Source: Candidatus Melainabacteria bacterium
GTDB taxonomy: Bacteria > Cyanobacteriota > Vampirovibrionia > 2-02-FULL-35-15
Direction of reading: 5' to 3'
Assembly: GCA_023250155.1 (NCBI GenBank)
Contig: JAHFBG010000009.1
Location: 18,826 to 82,825, forward strand
Length of the DNA stretch: 64,000 bases
Positions 16,054 through 61,959 of this stretch are shown one piece after another. Both the position numbers and the translations under genes were made by a program. The notes under the pieces are model-generated. The model saw only the letters and a list, made by a program, of their open reading frames with translations, did not search any database and was not told the DNA's origin. How positions within the stretch are numbered: position 1 is the first letter of the stretch; the number at the start of each line of letters is the position of its first letter.

Positions 16054-19000
16054 GTGAATTTGTTTTATACAAACAAAAATACTCCTGTAATGCCTAACAG
16101 AATGTTAATTCTTGGAGCAGTTGTTTCTTTTTATAATACTGGGCCAAAACTATTTTCATTTAAAAATATCTTTAAAACAATTATTTGTTTGCTTTGTGTA
16201 TTTTTAACTACTCTTCCTACCCTTGCTTTAGGTTTACAAAAAACTCCTGAAGAGATAATGAGAGCTGAGCTTTTATATGATGCCAGAAACAATGTAAATA
16301 AAATGTTTTTTGAAAGGCAAAGGGATTTAAGAAAAGATAAAAGTTTAATAAGTCAACTAGAAACTGTACCAAGCATTCCTGAGTCACCTGTAGAAAAGGC
16401 ATCAGTAAATCCACCAGATACTACAGCATCTGATCCAGTTGCAGATACTACAAACTGTGAAATAGTTCAAGAAGGATTACTTCTTGATTTAAGTGCCCCT
16501 ACAACACCAAACACAGAACAAGCACAAGCTCAAGGACTAAACTCAAACAATTTTACACTTGAACTATGGATAAATCCTAGTGCTGAAACAGCAGAAGCAG
16601 AAGCACAAGCCCAAAATTCTATAGTAAATGTTTTAAGTATAGGTAATAGCAATAATGTGGTTCTTAAAAATATAACCTCACATGATGCAGCTACTAACAC
16701 AAATACAAATGATTTTCACCTGACTTATACAAGCAAATCTAATACAAATGAAGGGTTAAATATAAAAACACCATTAGAGCAAAAAGATGAGTGGTCACAT
16801 TTTGTACTTATAAAAAATGAAAACACTATCATCCATTATTTAGATGGTAGTGAAGTAGCAAGAGGAATAGTTCAAGATAAAGAAATAAATTATGGTAATA
16901 ACGAAGTAGCAAATTTATATATTTCAGGATGGAGGCAGCTTGATCCTACACAAGCCAATCAAGTATTTAAAGGCTCTATTAACAAAGTTAGAATTTACAA
17001 TAGAGCATTAGAACTAAATGAAATTCAACAAAACTTTAAGGCTGAATATAACTCTTATTATGATGAGCCTATATATTGTGAATCATCACAAAATACTTCT
17101 AGTGAGCCTACTGAAACACAACCAGCAGAACCAGCAGTAGCACCAGTTCAAGATCTCACAAAAGATTCAGATAATGATGGAGTGTTAGACTCAGACGATC
17201 CAGATGATGACAATGATGGAACACTTGATGAGAAGGACAATTGTCCACTATTAGCAAGTTATGAACAAACTGATACTGATGGCGACAGCATAGGTAATCC
17301 CTGTGATCCTGATGATGACAATGATGGTGTAGATGATGGCAATGATCGCTGTCCACTTGTAAAGAATGAAGATCAAACTGATACTGACAACGATGGACAA
17401 GGTGACTTTTGTGACCCAGATGATGACAATGATGGAATACTTGATGAGAAGGACAATTGTCCACTATTAGCAAGTTATGAGCAAACTGATACTGATGGGG
17501 ACAGCATAGGTGATCCCTGTGATCCTGATGATGACAATGATGGTGTAGATGATGGCAATGATCGCTGTCCACTTGTAAAGAATGAAGATCAAACTGATAC
17601 TGACAACGATGGACAAGGTGACTTTTGTGACCCAGATGATGACAATGATGGAATACTTGATGAGAAGGACAATTGTCCACTATTAGCAAGTTATGAACAG
17701 ACTGATACTGATGGGGATGGACAAGGTAATGCTTGTGATCCATGTCCTGATGATCCTAATCCTTCTTGTGGAGTTACCACAACACAGCCAACTACTCCAC
17801 CAGCACAAGTACCATCGGTACCAGCAGCACCAACAGCTCCAACTACTTCGCCAGCACAAATACCAACAGTTCTACCACCAAGTACTAGTTGTGGTGATGG
17901 AACTATACAATCTACATTAGGTGAAGAATGTGATGATGGTAATACTAACAGTAATGATTACTGTGATTCTAAGTGCAAAAAAGAAATCTGTGGTGATAAA
18001 GTCATTCAAGATGGCATAGGTGAAAATTGTGATGATGGTAATACTGTAAGCAATGATGGTTGTAACTCAGGTTGTCGAAAAGAATATTGCGGTGATGGAA
18101 CTATACAATCTACATTAGGTGAAGAATGTGATGATGGTAATACTAACAGTAATGATTACTGTGATTCTAAGTGCAAAAAAGAAATCTGTGGTGATAAAGT
18201 CATTCAAGATGGCATAGGTGAAAATTGTGATGATGGTAATACTGTAAGCAATGATGGTTGTAACTCAGGTTGTCGAAAAGAATATTGCGGTGATGGAACT
18301 ATACAATCTACATTAGGTGAAGAATGTGATGATGGTAATACTAACAGTAATGATGGCTGTTCTGCTTCTTGTACTATTGAGTTAAGTGGTAGTGCAAATC
18401 CAACACAACCTACACAGCCATCTGCTCCACCAGCACAAGTTCCATCGACACCAGCAGCTCCATCTATACCACCAACCCCACCAGCACAAGCTCCATCGGC
18501 ACCAACACCAACTGAAACACCAGTAGTAATTCCACAAGCAGTACCATCTTCAACGCCTACTTCAATTCCACCACCAACTGAAACACCAGTAGCAATCCCA
18601 CAAGCAGTACCATCTTCTACGCCTACTTCAACAACAACACCAACTGAAACTCCTACAACAACTCCACCAGCACAAGTACCAGCAGCAATCCCACCAAGTG
18701 AAATACCTACAGTAGTTCCACCAGCTCAAGTACCTACAACAACTCCACTAGCTCAAATTCCTGCAGCACCTCCACCAACTGAAACACCAGTAGCAATCCC
18801 ACAAGCAGTACCATCTTCTACGCCTACTTCAACTCCACCACCTACTGAAACTCCTACAATAACTCCACTCGCTCAAGTTCCTGCAGCACCACCACCTACT
18901 GAAACACCAGTAGCAATCCCACAAGCAGTACCATCTTCTACGCCTACTTCAACTCCACCACCTACTGAAACTCCTACAATAACTCCACCAGCTCAAGTAC

Positions 19001-22000
19001 CTGCAGCAGCACCACCAGCTGAAACTCCTACAATAACTCCACTCGCTCAAGTTCCTGCAGCACCACCACCTACTGAAACACCAGTAGCAATCCCACAAGT
19101 CGGTGGAACAAGACCAACCATAAACCAAGGAGTAGTACCACCAGTAGTGAATCCGGGTGCAGGACCAGCAATACCGTCTTCTACACCTACACCTACTCCC
19201 ACACCAACTCCGACTCCTACTTGCAATCCTCCTTGTTCAGTGGGACAAGTCTGCACAAATGGTACTTGTACTAATAGTGTAGCCGTATGTGGAAATGGTA
19301 TTAAAGAAGGGGATGAAGAGTGTGATGATGGGGATAATCCTGATTTCAAATGTCTGAGTGACTGTACTGATAATGTTTGTGGTTTAGGAGGCATTCCTGT
19401 CTGCTATGAACTAACTGAATCAGAAAAGAAAGAACTAGACAAAGATGTTGAAGAAAAAGAGAAAGAAGAAGAAGAAAACACTAATGTAGATGAGATTTTA
19501 TTTGGTGATATTTATGATCAGTCTTGTGAAACAGATCCTCTTATACCAGATGAAGATGATAAGACTACTTGTAATCCTACTCAGGGAGGAAATGGAAATA
19601 ATCCTATTCTTGGTAGAAATAACCCTGCTCCAGCTGGAAATAATCCTGCTCCTGCTGGAATTGATCCTGTCGTTGGTGGAAACAACCCTGCTGCTTGTGC
19701 AGCGAACCTACAAGCAGGACCCATCAATCTACAAAACTTTCCACTTACAGCACGTGATTCATTAAACCCTTCTATACCCAGACTGGCACAAATAGTAAGA
19801 AGTGGACTTGAACGTTATCCTTTACCACCTCCTGATCCACGTGGATACTTCTTTAAAATAATAAATAATCTAGATATAGTAGCTATTGCAGAAGGTGGAC
19901 CTTTTACTGCACTTAGTAGAGTAGTTGCTTTAGATTTGGGTGAAACCGTAACACAGGTAGAAGGACTAGACCCGATAAATCAAAATACTTTCCCTCCAAA
20001 TGGGGGACTTGCAGGTCCAAGAACAGAATCTGGCAGATATTACTTCACGACTACTGATCTTGTAAATAAAAAACGATCATTGTTAACAGTAGATGAAATT
20101 TATACAGTAGCCTATGGAAGAGAGCTTCCTAAAGATCCTCCTCCACTATTACAACAACTTAGAACTGTTTTAGATAGACCATTAATTTTTAAACAAGGGA
20201 ATAACTGCATTCTTGAAGACAAGGTCAATAACACAACAGTACCACTTAACTGCAATGGTGATAATAGGATAATAACAAGAGCTTCAGCACAACCTTATGG
20301 CATCTTAGTAACAGATTATACAAAAGAAGAAAAAGTAATTGGAACTGCAAACGATTTCATTAAAGATATATTAGAGCAAAAAGATTTAAGCGGTAAACCC
20401 ATTTACACATGGAACAACATTTTATCAAGAACAAATTCAGCACCATTGGAATGTAATCTTGGAAAACTTGAAAAAAGTTTGGATGGGAAATATTTATTTT
20501 ATGATGGAAGAGACGATGAACTTATAGTAAGACCTTTAAGTTATATCTTCAGTGGCAGGCAAGCTGCAGAACTTCATAGAATATGGTATCTGCCAAAAGA
20601 AGAAAGCAGTGATAAAACTCCTGGTGATACTAGAATCTTTGTGCTAACTCCTGAAGAACCATATTATACATTTGTAAGTGGAGATTTGAAAACTCTTATA
20701 GTAAGAGATGGAAATTTTTCATTTGAAGCTAGTTTCCCTGATCCAAATGGCTTATACAATGCTTCTTCTGATGAAAAGAAATTTCAGGGAGATATAAATG
20801 AATTAAGAAATAATATTGACAATGAGAAAAGAAAAAGATTACTAACTTTATTTAGAAATAAATATGATTTACTAAATGCAAGAGTAGATTCTCTAAAGAA
20901 GGTTCAAAACAGTCTTACTGATTTTGAGCAAGTCGAATTAGAAATGCTTGAAAAAAGGAGAGATAGTCTTATTGCAGCAGTAGATGAAATTGCTCCTGAT
21001 ATGAAAGCATATATTGAGAGCCAAAGAGCAATACTTCAGCAACAACCACTTACAAGTGATATAGCAAATGAATTATGGGGGCTTGCAAAAATCGAAGCAG
21101 ATTTAATGTTTGATGAAGCAGAAAGACAAAGGCTTTTAGGAGTAGTAGTGAATGCTTTAGGTAATGAAGCATTGATGGTACTTCTAATTGAAAGGGGAGT
21201 AATAGAAGAGAAAATTTATTATGAAGAACATATTGAACAAATAGAAAAAGACGTAAAGAATTTAGAAACTGAGCTAAAAGATGCACCACAAAAACCAACA
21301 AAATCAGACTTAGCAAGACTTAGAAGATTAGCAAATCAATTTAAATCCCAGTTAGAAGCTTTAGAGAGGAGACTAAAACGATGGATACAAAGATTTTCTC
21401 AATATAGCTCAAGAATGATGCATTTAATAGACGGTGAGTTGATAGTAATAAATCAAAACCTGGATATATTAAATGATATATTGCATAACATAGAATTAAT
21501 AGACTCTCCTGATGTGAAATCCATTGCAGATATTTATAGAGCATGGGGAGTTCCAATAGGTGAGGTAAATGACCTTGCTGACCAGACTTTAGAAAGTTTT
21601 TCAGAAGAAGATATTCAAAAAGTAGATGCAAACTTAGCAGTACTTGAAAACTTAAACAGAGTCGAAAAAATAGGTTGGACAACTAAGGTTCAAGACGTTT
21701 TAGGTTCATCTTTTCTTAATATTAATAAAGTAACATTAGCTCGTCAACTTGCAACATTTGGTACACAATTCATTTTTAGTGATGACTTTGGCTTACTTAT
21801 TTCTACTAACTTTGCTGATGAGCTTGTAAAACCGCATAGAAGGGGGCTTAATCTTGCGATAGCACTAATTCAAGAAGATATCACAGAGATTAATAGTAGA
21901 CTGAGGGATGCTCTTATAAGAGCCAACAACAATGGTTCCAGGACTTATGGTATCTGGACAGATATTTTTACGGGGTTTCGCTTGGGCTCTCAAATAGAAG

Positions 22001-48995: not shown

Positions 48996-49532
48996 ATGAA
49001 TGTGATCCTTGACAGTAATGAATTAACAAAAACCTTAAAAAGGTTAGCACATGAGGTTATAGAAAATTATGTTAACTTAGAGAATCTTGTAATTATTGGA
49101 ATTGTCACTAGAGGTGAGTTCTTAGCAAAAAGATTACAGAACTTAATCTTAGAAATCGAAAAAACTGAAGTATCTTATGGCTACCTTGATGTAACCTTGT
49201 ATAGAGATGATCTTGATCACCGAAAGTCTTTAAAACCAAGCAAAATCAGTAAAGTACCAAACATTGATCATAAAAATGTCTTATTAGTAGATGATGTACT
49301 ATTCGAAGGACGAACAGTAAGAGCTGCTATGGATGCCCTGAAAGACTTTGGTAGACCATCTTCCGTAAAACTACTAGTTTTAATTGATAGAGGACATAGA
49401 AAATTACCTATAAGTGCTGATTTTACAGGAAAAAAAATATCTACAAGTTTAAATCAAACTGTTAAATTAAATATTACTGAAATTGACAATAAAGATTCAA
49501 TAGAAGTTGAAGATAAGGTAATGGCATCATAA
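48996..49532 (+). CDS. pyrR: Bifunctional pyr regulator / uracil phosphoribosyltransferase PyrR
   Basis: RLAHEVIE, LDVTLYRDD, VDDVLFEGRTVRAAMDAL, DRGHRKLPI. Confidence 0.93.
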   Translation: MNVILDSNELTKTLKRLAHEVIENYVNLENLVIIGIVTRGEFLAKRLQNLILEIEKTEVSYGYLDVTLYRDDLDHRKSLKPSKISKVPNIDHKNVLLVDDVLFEGRTVRAAMDALKDFGRPSSVKLLVLIDRGHRKLPISADFTGKKISTSLNQTVKLNITEIDNKDSIEVEDKVMAS

Positions 49533-50700: not shown

Positions 50701-51447
50701 TTATTCAGTCCCTGGTAAGTCATGAATTACTTTATTAATAACCGCTTGATATTCAGCTACTGGACTAGATTCTAGTGAATCATCAGAGTTGTAAGATGAT
50801 AAACAAAAGGGTTGATCTGTTACAGATATTTCTATATGAGTACCATGATCAATAACAGAGTGTGCTATTCCTTCTAATTTGGTTTTTAAAGCTGTGGCTG
50901 TACTTTGATCCTTGGAAATGATTGAGTAGTTAGAATAATATAATGGTTCATTAAAAACAGATTGAAGAGATGTAGGTCCTGGGCTACTATCTGTACCACT
51001 AACTGCTACATTGCATTGAAGTACTTCAAAAAGACTAAGAACTATTGCTTTTAAAGATTTTGTATTAAGCTCTGCTTCCTTATTTTCTTCCTGAAGAAGA
51101 TAATCATCTATTCCTGCACTAGGTGACACAATAAATTGTGGTTTATTACTTAAATTGTTAACTAAAATATGAACCAAAGGTGATTGTAATTGATTACCAT
51201 TTTCTACAGAACTAGCTTTAATATCAGCGATTCTAACAATTTCATTTTCTTTTAATACTGTATTCTTGTCTACTCTATTAATAACATCAAATTTTATGCT
51301 ATTTGCTTTTTTGCTTAAGGTTATTGAAAACTTAGTAAGTATAGCTTGTAAGTCTTCAATAGTTTTATTTTGTTGTTTTGAAAGTACGTCCCTAGTAGAA
51401 CTAAGGGATTGTTCTTTTATTAAATATATTACTGGTGAAATTGACAT
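50701..51447 (-). CDS. Hypothetical cytoplasmic protein (248 aa); candidate immunity protein for toxin B
   Basis: ATG at 51447 lies 1 nt after the toxin stop (TAA-C-ATG), with RBS AGAGGA inside the toxin 3' end. Homologous fragments follow toxin A. Confidence 0.7.
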   Translation of the reverse strand: MSISPVIYLIKEQSLSSTRDVLSKQQNKTIEDLQAILTKFSITLSKKANSIKFDVINRVDKNTVLKENEIVRIADIKASSVENGNQLQSPLVHILVNNLSNKPQFIVSPSAGIDDYLLQEENKEAELNTKSLKAIVLSLFEVLQCNVAVSGTDSSPGPTSLQSVFNEPLYYSNYSIISKDQSTATALKTKLEGIAHSVIDHGTHIEISVTDQPFCLSSYNSDDSLESSPVAEYQAVINKVIHDLPGTE

Positions 51448-51448
51448 G

Positions 51449-54400
51449 TTAATTTCCTCTCTTTTCAAAAATAGTTATTAATCTCTTATGAAATTCAGGG
51501 TTAGTGTTATAGTTCTTAGGAACAGTTAGTATATTACCTGTTAATGAAGGTGGATTATTGTTTGATGCCACTTGAATTTCTATAGAATCCCCCCCTATAG
51601 ATAAAAATGCTTTACCATTATTAGTTTGTGCAGTATGAATCAAGCGTATTAATTGATCTGGCTTTTTACTAATTTTCTCTATCATTGCAGCATTAGTATT
51701 CTTAGTTTCAATATAATGTTTTGTGCCATTTGGAGCAATTGCTACAATATCTATTTCACCAGCCCCTCTATTTATCCCATCTATTATAGTATCTTTTAAT
51801 TTAAGTCCTAAACGCTCAATAGTATAACCCTCTTCTATAAGCAATCTTGCAGCTTTAAGTTCATATGTTAATCCTTGTAAATCCTTACTAGAAGCTCCTG
51901 GTTTACCAATAAATCCACCTTTATGACCATTGCCTTGTAAGGCTTGTAATAAATCAGCTCTTGCTTGTTGAGTCATATTTGGGTGTCTAATTAAAGAATT
52001 AAATTCACTAAGAAATTCTTGAGCTATATGTAATCCACGATCACTACTTAATGGAGAAGTAACCGGAAGATGATTATCCACCTCTGCTAAAAATCTATTT
52101 AATCGTTGCTGGAATTGTGGATCCATATGCAGACCAAGTTGTACAGGTACATTCTGAAGAAAACGTTCAGCTATAATTGTTCTATGTAAATTAGCTAAGT
52201 CTGTTTGTATTCTTGAGACACTGTTTAAATTTAACGCTCCTGGTGTTTGTAAATCATTCAAGACAATATTTAGTAGTCCCTCATGTTCTTGAGAAAGTCC
52301 TTGTAATTCACGAATAGATTCAAGCCTTCTTCGTAATGTATTTTTAATTTCTTGTGGCATATTAAGTGGTAGCTTATCTATATTAGAAATAGCATTGTTA
52401 ATAGCTTCACCTAAAGGATTATGATTTCCTATTTGTACTAGAGCTTGAGTCCTTGGATTTCTATTTACATTGTATTGATAGTCAGCTTTAAATCCTTGCA
52501 TGTAATTTCTAAGACCATTAGCTTCTGCATATTCAATCGCTTCCTTCAACTTGTTTTGCCTAATAAGTTCTTGTATTCTTCTTGAGTGCTCTGCATTAGG
52601 TCCATGAGGTGCTTCACCTGGGTTTCGTCTTGCTCTAACATTAAACTCTTCAAGCGCGCGCCTTGCTAAATATTCGGGCTCAGACATTTTCGTGCCATTT
52701 TGTCTTACTGGATCAATAATTCCTGTCCTGCGATTAGCATGAGCAATTTCATGCTCAATTATTCTTGAATTGTTTAACGTACCTGCATCTTTTACTCTAA
52801 TAATAGTTTCTCTAGTACCATTTGGATTCACTCTAACTTCAGCATGAGCTGGACGATTTGCTGGTAGTGTAGGATCTATTTCAAATGTAACTCTTCTTCC
52901 ATCTCTATTTGCATATTGAAAAGCATTACTATTGCGGACTTCAAGAGGAAGATTTTCATGAGGTATTGATGCTAGCTGGCGTTGCATTTCAGGAGTTATG
53001 TTATTCTTTGAATAAAATTCCTGAATCTCTCTTAAGGTTCTATTTCGCACACTAGTTTCAAGAACTTGCTCATGAAGTTGTGGGAGTCCTTTAAGTTTCA
53101 ATTCTAATAGTCGTAATTGTTGTAATCTTTGTAAATTATTAGCAACAAAATTATTAGGATTATTACCATGACTACTCCTATTTAATAAATCCAGTAAATG
53201 TTGAGTTCTTCTATTTAAAACATTTATTTCTAATATTGTGTTACATGCTTGTAGTTCTCTACCTAGAGCTTCAATTATTGGTTTTAATTCAGGCGAAGGA
53301 TTTCCAACCTCTCGAAGCGTATTTAAATCATTTATAATTCTATCCCTTCTTATTCTTGTAAACTCCTGACGAGCATGATATTCCTCAGGCGTACTAAAAT
53401 ATCTCATGTTTGCTCGTTCATCTATCATTATCATATAATTTTCTCTTACAACAATTCTTTCTCTAAAATTATTTCTGAGAGCTATTCTTGCCGCATCATT
53501 TTCTATATTTAGTGGAGGTAAATTGTTAGCTTGAGGAACTCTTCTTTGTAAAATCGCTTGAAAAGCAACATTTTGTGTTTCCAAAGTATTTGTCAGTACT
53601 CTACGCATAAGTACTTCCCGAGAAGCAAGGTCAAGGTTAGTAAAATTTCTTTCTAGGATTGCACGATGATTCTTAATAAAGTTTGCAACATCTTGTTCTA
53701 GTACATTGCGTGATGAGTTATTTCCAATGTGTTTTTCTACTAATGCTCTTAGATCATTATGACAACTTTCAGGCATATTAATCCTGCCATGAGGAGTTCC
53801 TGGTTCTCCTTGACTTATATTTCCTTGTTGAAGTAGGTTAAAAGCTTCTTGTCGTAAGAAATTTTGTACCTGTGCTTCTGGTATTCGCGATAGAAGCATT
53901 GCACTTTGTGCATGTCGAGATTCATGAATTATAGTATCTCTAAAGTGTTGATGAAGTATTCCTGCCAACGGGTTTTGATTATTTCCTTTTACAAGATGAT
54001 TAAAGATATTTCTATTTAATCGTATTGTATGATTCGTAGGATTATAGCTACCGTATGTACTACCAGGTAAATCTACAAATTCAATTTTTGGTCTTGCGGC
54101 TACTGGTATATCTTTAAAATACTCATTTAAAACTTGATTTGCACGAGTTTCTATTTCACTGTGGCTTAATCTTTCTCCTGGTACTCCTTCAAAAATTTCT
54201 CTTACAGTTCTTCGACTTATATCATGCCCATTTTGATTTGCTCTAGCAACTTCTTGGTATACACTTCTCTCTAAGTTTGCATAAAATTCTCTACTTGGTG
54301 TGTTCTGGTGATTTTGGAAAGGTGGTGTTACATGACTATTTCCATTAACCTGGGGGGTATGTGCTTGTATTGAAGAGTGTGGATGTAGTATAAGAGGTGC

Positions 54401-60558: not shown

Positions 60559-61959
60559 ATGGCAAACATTTTTAGTCTATTTAATATAGCTTCAAGTTCT
60601 ATATCTACAGTATTAGGGCAAAATCCACCGCCAGTGGGTAATCTGCCAACACCTGTAGTTCCTCAAAATGATCGTTTTGCAAAAAATAACAGACCTCATC
60701 CTCAAGTAACAGAAGAACAATTCAATACCTTGATTCAAAATCTAGGCTCTGGTCCATTTGCTACAAGGCAAGCAGCATCAGCACAACTAAGAGAACTTAT
60801 TAATAACTGTCCATTAAATCAACTCCCTGCTTTCCTTGCAAGGCTTAGTAATGAAAGAACACGCAGTAGTGATTTAGAAGTTAAACGCAGAATTACACTT
60901 GCACTTAGAGCTACTAATAATAATCTTATTAATAGAGTAAATATTGAACAGAATGCTGAAACTAAATTAAATTGCATAGCCGCCCTTGCTCAAGTAGGAA
61001 CATTAGATTTTGGTAATAGAAATCATAGAGAATTATTTAACTTTTTATTTACAAATATAAATGGACTTCCACAAAATACAATAACTTCAGTAAGTCAAGC
61101 AATCATTAATCGTATTAGTGGTCCTAATGGTGTAAAAGAAAGAAGACAACTTGCACAACATGAAAATGCTCCTCCACAAATATTAACCATACTAGCTAGT
61201 GATCAAGAGCGTGGTGTAAGACTTGATGTTGCAAGACATCGAAATACGCCTGCTCCAGTATTAACAACTCTTGCTGGTGATCAAGATGTTGGAGTAAGAG
61301 ATAGAGTTGCAAGGAATCCAAATACTCCTGCTCCAACATTAACAACTCTGGCTAGTGATCAAAATATTGACATAAGACGTACTGTTGCAATAAATCCAAA
61401 TACTCCTGCTCTAGCATTAACCACTCTGGCTAGCGATCAAGATATTGATATAAGGTGTATTGTGGCAGTACATCCAAATACACCTGCTCCAGCATTAACA
61501 ACTCTTGCAGGTGATCAAGATGTTGACATAAGACGTTCTGTTTCAATACATCAAAACACATCAGCTCCAGCATTAACAACTCTTGCAGGGGATCAAGATG
61601 TACTGGTAAGACGTGCTGTTGCATGGAATCCAAATACACCTGCTCTAGCCTTAACCACTCTCGCAGGTGATCAAGATGCCATGGTAAGAAGTAATGTTGC
61701 TAGTCATAGGAATACACTTGCTCCAGTATTAATTACTCTCGCTGGCGATCAAAATATTGACATAAGACGTGCTGTTGCAATAAATCCAAATACACCTGCT
61801 CCAGCATTAACAACCCTTGCAGGTGATCAAGATGTTCAAATAAGACTTACTGTTGCACAACATCAAAATACACTAGCTCAAATATTAACTAATCTTACTC
61901 AAGATCAAGACCCTGCTGTAAGAGCTGCTGCTCAAAGAGCTTTGAATTCTAGGAGATAA
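60559..61959 (+). CDS. HEAT/leucine-rich-repeat-variant (LRV) 24-aa repeat protein
   Basis: About 11 repeats of VRRAVAxNPNTPAPALTTLAGDQD; N-terminal LGSGPFATRQAASAQL; RBS AGGAG. Confidence 0.85.
   Translation: MANIFSLFNIASSSISTVLGQNPPPVGNLPTPVVPQNDRFAKNNRPHPQVTEEQFNTLIQNLGSGPFATRQAASAQLRELINNCPLNQLPAFLARLSNERTRSSDLEVKRRITLALRATNNNLINRVNIEQNAETKLNCIAALAQVGTLDFGNRNHRELFNFLFTNINGLPQNTITSVSQAIINRISGPNGVKERRQLAQHENAPPQILTILASDQERGVRLDVARHRNTPAPVLTTLAGDQDVGVRDRVARNPNTPAPTLTTLASDQNIDIRRTVAINPNTPALALTTLASDQDIDIRCIVAVHPNTPAPALTTLAGDQDVDIRRSVSIHQNTSAPALTTLAGDQDVLVRRAVAWNPNTPALALTTLAGDQDAMVRSNVASHRNTLAPVLITLAGDQNIDIRRAVAINPNTPAPALTTLAGDQDVQIRLTVAQHQNTLAQILTNLTQDQDPAVRAAAQRALNSRR

Follow-up and report, generated by a model that had tools for sequence, protein, structure and literature searches.

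What does a small protein that no domain library recognises do directly behind the gene of a giant protein with a nuclease-like end? This question is raised by a stretch of 64,000 nucleotides (hereafter the window; assembly GCA_023250155.1, contig JAHFBG010000009.1, forward-strand positions 18,826 to 82,825) of a Candidatus Melainabacteria bacterium, whose DNA was found in groundwater metagenomes of one study. On the minus strand of the window, the gene P0001 (50701..51447, 248 amino acids, stop codon at 50701-50703) lies directly downstream of the giant open reading frame (ORF) B (P0002, 51449..60355, 2968 amino acids), which carries a putative PD-(D/E)xK-type nuclease domain as its C-terminal tip. 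A first-pass annotation, made from the sequence of the window, had proposed P0001 as the cognate antitoxin of this tip and as a member of a novel immunity family translationally coupled to it. Based on a conserved gene order, an immunity-type fold, a controlled complex prediction and the signature of the tip, we suggest that P0001 is quite probably the cognate immunity protein of B, which would bind and block its PD-(D/E)xK-type tip.

The junction of the two genes (51448..51460, minus strand) was read directly from the sequence as AAG AGA GGA AAT TAA C ATG TCA. The hexamer AGAGGA (51460-51455) is followed by AAT, the last codon of B, by its stop codon TAA (51451-51449), by the single spacer base C (51448) and by the ATG of P0001 (51447-45), which is located one base after the TAA. 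Eight nucleotides separate the GAGG of the Shine-Dalgarno-like AGAGG from this ATG, and the element lies inside the final codons of B (K R G N). According to the ORF listing, a longer frame of P0001 is possible from a TTG at 51468. Since every homologue in the family alignment begins with M-S/A-I/V-S/T-P at the residue aligned to the ATG at 51447, we regard this ATG, and not the TTG, as the start. The layout of the junction is compatible with translational coupling of B and P0001. The first-pass annotation had described the same junction, with the ribosome binding site embedded in the last toxin codons, and its coordinates for the gene, 50701-51451, take in four junction bases. A promoter and terminator scan gave nine promoter-like sites against 7.5 expected, and no terminators.

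The translation of 50701-51447 returned the 248 residues stated in that annotation, and its description of P0001 as a soluble protein with no recognised motif was also upheld. The highest 19-residue Kyte-Doolittle mean of the protein is 1.55, under the usual threshold of 1.6, and the segment concerned lies within a helix of the model described below. Neither a Pfam nor an NCBIfam family was matched (0 of each).

The gene order is kept throughout the family. All seven full-length members of the P0001 family with a readable DNA context (7/7) have immediately upstream, in the same orientation, an ORF that ends in the tip domain. These are the members of the window, of contig C18 of the same genome, of the genomes G001, G010 and G092, and of the metagenome loci L105 and L106, the contig of the last carrying only the final 82 amino acids of the tip ORF. 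An eighth case of this order is the remnant behind a second giant ORF of the window, ORF A. In the family contexts the tip domain forms the last ~150 residues of the upstream ORFs. The gaps between the tip ORF and the start of the immunity-like gene at the seven loci are 1, 2, 24, at least 61, 124, 149 and 160 nucleotides, indicating that tight coupling is a feature of the window copy and not of the family. The pair is present at two unlinked places in its own genome (the window and C18), and its order has survived the divergence of both genes to 22-30% identity as well as a complete change of the upstream carrier. The similarities of the tips and of the immunity-like proteins rise together, with a Spearman coefficient of 0.58 over six pairs and 15 comparisons that are not independent of each other. 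In G010 the immunity-like frame (L008, 1471-2160, minus strand) is open for 229 codons, and none of the codons ATG, GTG and TTG is present at the position of the family start (...F-L-S-I-S-P...). This copy may use an uncommon start codon or be in decay.

The P0001 family itself was delineated by profile searches. The paralogue on contig C18 of the own genome (2.8 Mb in 20 contigs, 95.2% complete) is 256 amino acids long, shares 27% identity with P0001 (E 1e-8) and has the same M-S-I-S-P start, and a third member was found in a genome of the same genus (G001). When a profile of the three members was compared with 1.84 billion representative proteins, 24 proteins were retrieved at E<=0.001, including 13 at <=1e-10, and all 24 are 177-264 amino acids long. 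Among the representatives P0003-P0025, the proteins P0003, P0004 and P0007 correspond to loci for which the DNA context was read. The family alignment comprises 26 sequences, in which the columns M1, P109 and S172 are near-invariant. None of these 26 members convincingly matched a Pfam family, and the 26-sequence profile matched no PDB sequence at E up to 10, the immunity protein TsiT included; a single PDB match at 0.35 in an earlier profile search was set aside as chance-level. A word-index protein search with P0001 returned P0001 itself only, 122 pattern matches in a genome-contig collection contained no relative, and the family was not found by tblastn in the phage or plasmid collections. 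With its own genome counted, the family is present in 4/401 sampled genomes of the class and in 2/401 genomes of the phylum sample. A further match, L005 in G020 (E 0.001), was dropped as spurious, being a histidine-kinase-like ORF that the profile did not recover. The P0001 family is rare and narrow.

The tip of B (51452..52051, minus strand) comprises its last 200 residues, which are numbered here from 1 to 200, and contains G60, E64, D101, E115, K117 and Q133. An alignment of 13 tips shows no variation at G60, D101, K117 and Q133, and most of the tips also have E64 and E/D115. Taken in order, these residues give the signature G-x3-E...D...(E/D)xK...Q, which is PD-(D/E)xK-like. The weak Pfam matches of the 13 tips are nearly all to PD-(D/E)xK families. 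Below the threshold, UPF0102/YraN was matched in five tips, NERD in three (0.0063 for the tip of B), and SfsA, Card1, Hjc and Tox-REase-7 (E 0.15) in one tip each. Mrr_cat was matched in one of the 13 at 8.3e-5, and the whole protein of this one relative reaches 22 bits against a cut-off of 21. When a tip profile was compared with PDB sequences, six of the nine matches, all sub-threshold, were to PD-(D/E)xK proteins (YraN-like 3fov at 0.066, AF1548 at 0.093 and four Hjc resolvase entries). A comparison of the 200-residue tip with longer proteins gave no match, in a search that is itself weak evidence.

The fold of P0001 was predicted with AlphaFold2. The model from the 26-sequence alignment reached a pLDDT (predicted local distance difference test) of 91.0 and a pTM (predicted template modelling score) of 0.90; a first model from three sequences (pLDDT 46) was discarded. 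The predicted structure has a two-lobed alpha+beta fold. When we compared it with the PDB using Foldseek, the top usable superpositions were PA0821 (7drg, E 5.6e-6), BPSL2088 (4rho, 1.1e-5) and the TsiT entries 9oz0, 7dym and 6jdp, and rows of arginine kinase (E about 1e-3, TM 0.25) were set aside as poor superpositions. For two of these three best neighbours, TsiT and PA0821, a role in immunity against nucleases has been described, and these nucleases belong to the superfamily suggested by the signature of the tip. No adaptor or chaperone of a type VI secretion system (T6SS) is among the three. As leads only, the ESM Atlas's own model of P0001 has Imm52 clusters among its neighbours (TM 0.50-0.57), and one neighbour cluster carries Tox-REase-5 on 24% of its members.

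The pairing proposed in the first-pass annotation was also supported when the tip and P0001 were modelled as a complex. The 200-residue tip of B was supplied with a 13-row alignment and P0001 with its 26-row alignment. The median of the interface score ipSAE was 0.66 (runs of 0.67, 0.63 and 0.66), while the best of three controls reached 0.00. The ipSAE mark is reached by 116/157 solved complexes and by 2/215 mismatched pairs, counts that are only rough with custom alignments such as these. The runs share at least 78% of their contacts, and the pLDDT of the partners is at least 82. On the side of the tip, the confident contacts fall at residues 59-61, 64, 94-101, 115-116 and 128-133, bracketing the signature residues, and on the side of P0001 they involve the conserved N-terminus (residues 1-4 and 6) and the stretch around the near-invariant P109. 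The complex model supports binding, and it reads as an occlusion of the catalytic face of the tip.

Based on these observations, we propose the following course of events. P0001 would be made from the same transcript as B and, since its start lies one base after the stop codon and its ribosome binding site inside the last toxin codons, would probably be synthesised at a rate tied to that of the toxin. Direct binding to the tip is predicted, with P0001 covering the face that carries the catalytic residues G-x3-E, D, ExK and Q, and this cover would hold the nuclease in check inside the cell that makes it. Tip and immunity protein would then behave as the cassette of a polymorphic-toxin module.

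The closest described counterpart of this pair is that of TsiT and TseT in Pseudomonas aeruginosa. TsiT (PA3908, Imm52 PF15579; PDB 6jdp, 7dym, 9oz0 and 9owg) is stated in a passage of PMC9635880 to counteract the PD-(D/E)xK effector TseT (PA3907), a T6SS effector with a Tox-REase-5 domain, and the pairing of Imm52 with Tox-REase-5 is given in a section of Zhang et al. 2012 (PMC3482391). In its predicted model, P0001 shares the alpha+beta fold of the solved TsiT structures. However, the Imm52 profile PF15579 matches none of the 26 family members at E up to 10. The conserved residues named for Imm52 in that section are 'W, GT, F' (PMC3482391), whereas no column of conserved W or GT is seen in the 26-sequence alignment, which covers the P0001 family by itself. 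The partner toxin differs as well, as none of the 13 tips matches Tox-REase-5 at E up to 10 and the neighbour of P0001 would be a different PD-(D/E)xK-like domain. While TsiT belongs to a T6SS, no T6SS marker (VipB) was found in the own genome of P0001. A passage of PMC9635880 reports, with reference to Wen et al. 2021, that TsiT works by interfering with the oligomerisation of TseT, whereas P0001 is predicted to cover the active site.

PA0821 (7drg) provides a second counterpart. A passage of PMC9635880 calls it (as 7DRG) an immunity protein and the closest structure to TsiV3, the DUF3396 immunity protein of the VRR-Nuc effector TseV3. PA0821 and TsiV1-4 are DUF3396 immunity proteins of VRR-Nuc effectors of the TseV type (PA0822; Salmonella bongori TseV1-4). 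PA0821 is larger than P0001 (345-361 residues in the chains) and only 6-8% identical to it, and P0001 has no Pfam match to DUF3396. The TseV partners are PAAR/T6SS effectors with a VRR-Nuc domain, whereas the tip of B has no VRR-Nuc match. The third neighbour, BPSL2088 of Burkholderia pseudomallei (PDB 4rho), was deposited as a hypothetical protein and is 10-11% identical to P0001, and a whole-word full-text search for BPSL2088 and 4RHO found no paper about the protein or its function.

The residue signature of the tip, for its part, resembles that of Tox-REase-7 (PF15649), which is given as 'GxxxE, IxD, ExK, Q' in the section of PMC3482391 concerned, with cyanobacteria among the phyla in which the domain is reported. 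The tip residues G60-x3-E64, I-D101, E115-x-K117 and Q133 are close to this signature. However, the Pfam model of Tox-REase-7 was matched by the one tip of 13 mentioned above, at E 0.15, and the immunity partners listed there for it, ImmHEAT, Imm23 and Imm54 (PMC3482391), are other families than that of P0001.

As far as this evidence goes, P0001 may work like TsiT and TsiV, and only the predicted fold is common to it and Imm52 or DUF3396. P0001 is not a demonstrable member of either family. No profile was matched, the residues listed for Imm52 were not recovered, and the putative toxin beside it is of another family. The claim of a novel family thus stands by sequence, as no Pfam, NCBIfam or PDB sequence was matched; it does not stand by fold, which is that of Imm52/TsiT and DUF3396/PA0821, nor by the type of pairing, which has been published. 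The P0001 family has no entry in the libraries searched, the tip falls outside the curated toxin families, and the lineage and the carriers are not ones known for such systems. A full-text search combining Melainabacteria with polymorphic toxins or immunity proteins gave no paper on the subject among the matches listed, which is weak evidence.

The carriers of the tip differ widely. B itself matches no Pfam or NCBIfam family. It contains three tandem 23-residue repeats at residues about 1250-1320, a Gly/Ala-rich hydrophobic stretch at about 1699-1745, in which the Kyte-Doolittle 19-residue mean exceeds 1.6 over residues 1699-1726, and two HExxH motifs, one at 2144 and one at 2535. These features could represent parts of a delivery scaffold for insertion into membranes and for a metallopeptidase-like activity, perhaps self-processing. 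ORF A (16054-25113, plus strand, 3019 amino acids) has a signal-peptide-like N-terminus and LamG, TSP3 and Cys-rich repeats of extracellular type. Its C-terminal module (24010..25113, plus strand) is homologous to that of B, with the signature residues intact and 30-31% identity over 321 amino acids (BLASTP, E 1e-31). A and B are related only in these last ~320 amino acids, and the remainder is unrelated. The tip also ends proteins of 460-613 amino acids elsewhere. One C-terminal toxin module on different carriers is among the usual marks of polymorphic toxins, and the arrangement seen here fits this hallmark.

Behind ORF A lie two fragments that correspond to the 3' end of an immunity gene (25101..25269, plus strand), so that the paralogous tails reported there by the first-pass annotation are real, and a third tail can be added. 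Tail 1 (about 25101-25166, ...YQAVIK...) overlaps the end of A in another frame and scores weakly (E 2 among the window frames), though the likeness is plain by eye. Tail 2 (25156-25266 plus the stop codon) was recognised by the profile at positions 202-237, with E 2.3e-4 against the whole genome and 3.6e-6 against the window frames. Tail 3, again the end of an immunity gene (...YQEVIRKLL...), lies at about 26619-26668 on the plus strand, translated about 26620-26662. Between tails 2 and 3 is a DUF4143/AAA_14 ATPase gene (25354-26559, minus strand), flanked by a 50-nucleotide direct repeat at 25238-25287 and 26619-26668, the copies of which are 74% identical and 1381 nucleotides apart. Identical DNA of the end of A and the tails was found in contigs from two other runs of this groundwater study, one spanning 23800-25246 and another 25103-25766. 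The arrangement is therefore not an artefact of a single assembly, though the runs are not independent.

Here, we need to consider several observations that weigh against P0001 as the dedicated immunity protein of an exported toxin. No Pfam nuclease model is above threshold on the tip, and its putative assignment as a nuclease is based on the motif and on weak matches. Fold and complex alike are predicted. Since TseT-TsiT complexes have been solved, the complex score might owe something to a resemblance to these structures, despite an identity of P0001 to TsiT of only 7-9%. Pfam and NCBIfam scans found no known trafficking domain in A or B, and VipB (T6SS sheath), VirB4 and a phage-type sheath were not found in the 95.2%-complete genome, in which type I, type II and type V secretion systems (T1SS, T2SS, T5SS) were not searched genome-wide. 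As neither a sheath nor a VirB4 marker was found and B has no recognised trafficking domain, no route of export can be assigned to the toxin. In ORF A every signature residue is retained, and only fragments of an immunity gene follow it. Either a tip of intact appearance can do without a matching full-length immunity gene, or A is silent or has no activity, or P0001 also gives protection against A.

The distribution of the tip is a further point on this side. A tip profile matched 13 places in the 401 genomes of the class. L020, a 152-amino-acid protein of YraN/UPF0102 type, and L024, which has no signature, were excluded from the tip counts. Seven tip-like ORFs (L014, L015, L016, L017, L018, L019 and L022) have neither a family member nor a remnant within about 1.5 kb, and these tips are either served by other immunity proteins or not self-toxic. 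Since several of the unpartnered tip genes adjoin a phosphoribosyltransferase gene, as B does, the tip domain may be an old resident of the lineage that is not always guarded by the P0001 family.

Several features around these tip genes were observed in addition. The phosphoribosyltransferase gene lies at 48996-49532 (plus strand) in the window, at 2562-3134 in L017, at 518-1048 in L018 and at 228-770 in L105; this site is a conserved chromosomal neighbourhood in which the tip carriers range from 300 to 2968 amino acids. Just downstream of three unpartnered tip genes, and convergent with them, is a conserved ORF of ~120 amino acids (L014 688-1059, plus strand; L016 3182-3532, minus strand; L017 809-1186, plus strand), 45-57% identical among the loci, and two of the three tip genes have a second related ORF beside them. 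The shared ~120-amino-acid ORF may represent another partner family or plain synteny. In G004, two tip-type ORFs stand in tandem (L015, 916-2007 and 2031-3404, plus strand), the second of which is weak on the tip profile (E 0.0017), with no immunity-family gene. A HEAT/LRV-repeat gene (60559-61959, plus strand) lies divergently beside ORF B, and a HEAT-repeat gene lies convergently beside the unpartnered tip of L018 (2101-3396, minus strand). Because Zhang et al. 2012 list HEAT repeats among the Tox-REase-7 immunity partners, a HEAT-repeat protein could, by analogy, be an alternative immunity protein.

Even if P0001 inhibits the tip, the nuclease could act inside its producer, for example on phage attack after loss of the inhibitor, and the pair would then be an intracellular toxin-antitoxin or abortive-infection module. 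The tip proteins of 460-613 amino acids and B, all without a known secretion domain, would suit such a module, as would the lack of any match to T6SS, VirB4 or sheath markers in the genome, and a part of a preprint (10.1101/835710) reports Tox-REase-5/Imm52 pairs to be toxin-antitoxin systems that were converted into T6SS effectors. However, PADLOC gave chance-level matches only, over short stretches, when applied to P0001, its paralogue and the carriers (Csm5 at 0.0089, type IV Cas11 at 2.7e-4), no PHROGs match was obtained, and a nuclease domain that ends two unrelated ~3000-residue proteins, one of them (A) of extracellular type, fits exported polymorphic toxins better. We consider an intracellular module unlikely.

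The prediction that supports binding would also allow P0001 to bind the tip without protecting from it, either as a chaperone or adaptor that keeps the C-terminus of B competent for export or as a regulatory subunit of a housekeeping nuclease. Binding is supported by prediction only, and the unpartnered tip homologues at the conserved phosphoribosyltransferase site in several relatives hint at a non-toxic resident role. On the other hand, the three best PDB matches include two named immunity proteins and no adaptor or chaperone, and the predicted contacts cover the catalytic residues, as those of an inhibitor would. Adaptor genes are usually located upstream of their effector, and P0001 lies downstream of B. 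A binding but non-protective role seems improbable. It is less credible still that P0001 has no functional link to the tip and is an unrelated lineage-specific protein travelling beside the end of the tip gene. In a small family confined to close relatives, the gene order could partly reflect shared descent. However, the order is kept despite 22-30% identity and a wholly changed carrier, the pair stands at two unlinked places in one genome, and fold and complex prediction point the same way. Weighing these points together, we favour P0001 as the probable immunity protein of the tip of B.

With P0001 taken as this immunity protein, we put forward a wider idea with considerable reserve. Imm52, DUF3396 and the P0001 family might be offshoots of a single old and widely distributed fold whose role is to inhibit PD-(D/E)xK nuclease toxins, each paired with a different nuclease family. 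The giant carriers might form an undescribed delivery scaffold for polymorphic toxins in a groundwater lineage in which searches for T6SS sheath, VirB4 and contractile-sheath markers gave no match. This idea is possible but doubtful at present.

In conclusion, a function is proposed here for a protein family that domain libraries do not recognise. The TsiT-type fold would here be combined, for a third time, with another kind of PD-(D/E)xK nuclease domain, also the third, which supports the view of this fold as a general inhibitor scaffold for PD-(D/E)xK nucleases, and the 26-sequence alignment could seed a new immunity-family model. A nuclease tip followed by its immunity protein is a textbook system, so that only a new delivery route would make the advance more than incremental. 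In this respect, two proteins of ~3000 residues and several shorter ones are probable toxin carriers in an uncultured groundwater lineage with no recognised export route, so that new mechanisms of delivery may be sought in this lineage.

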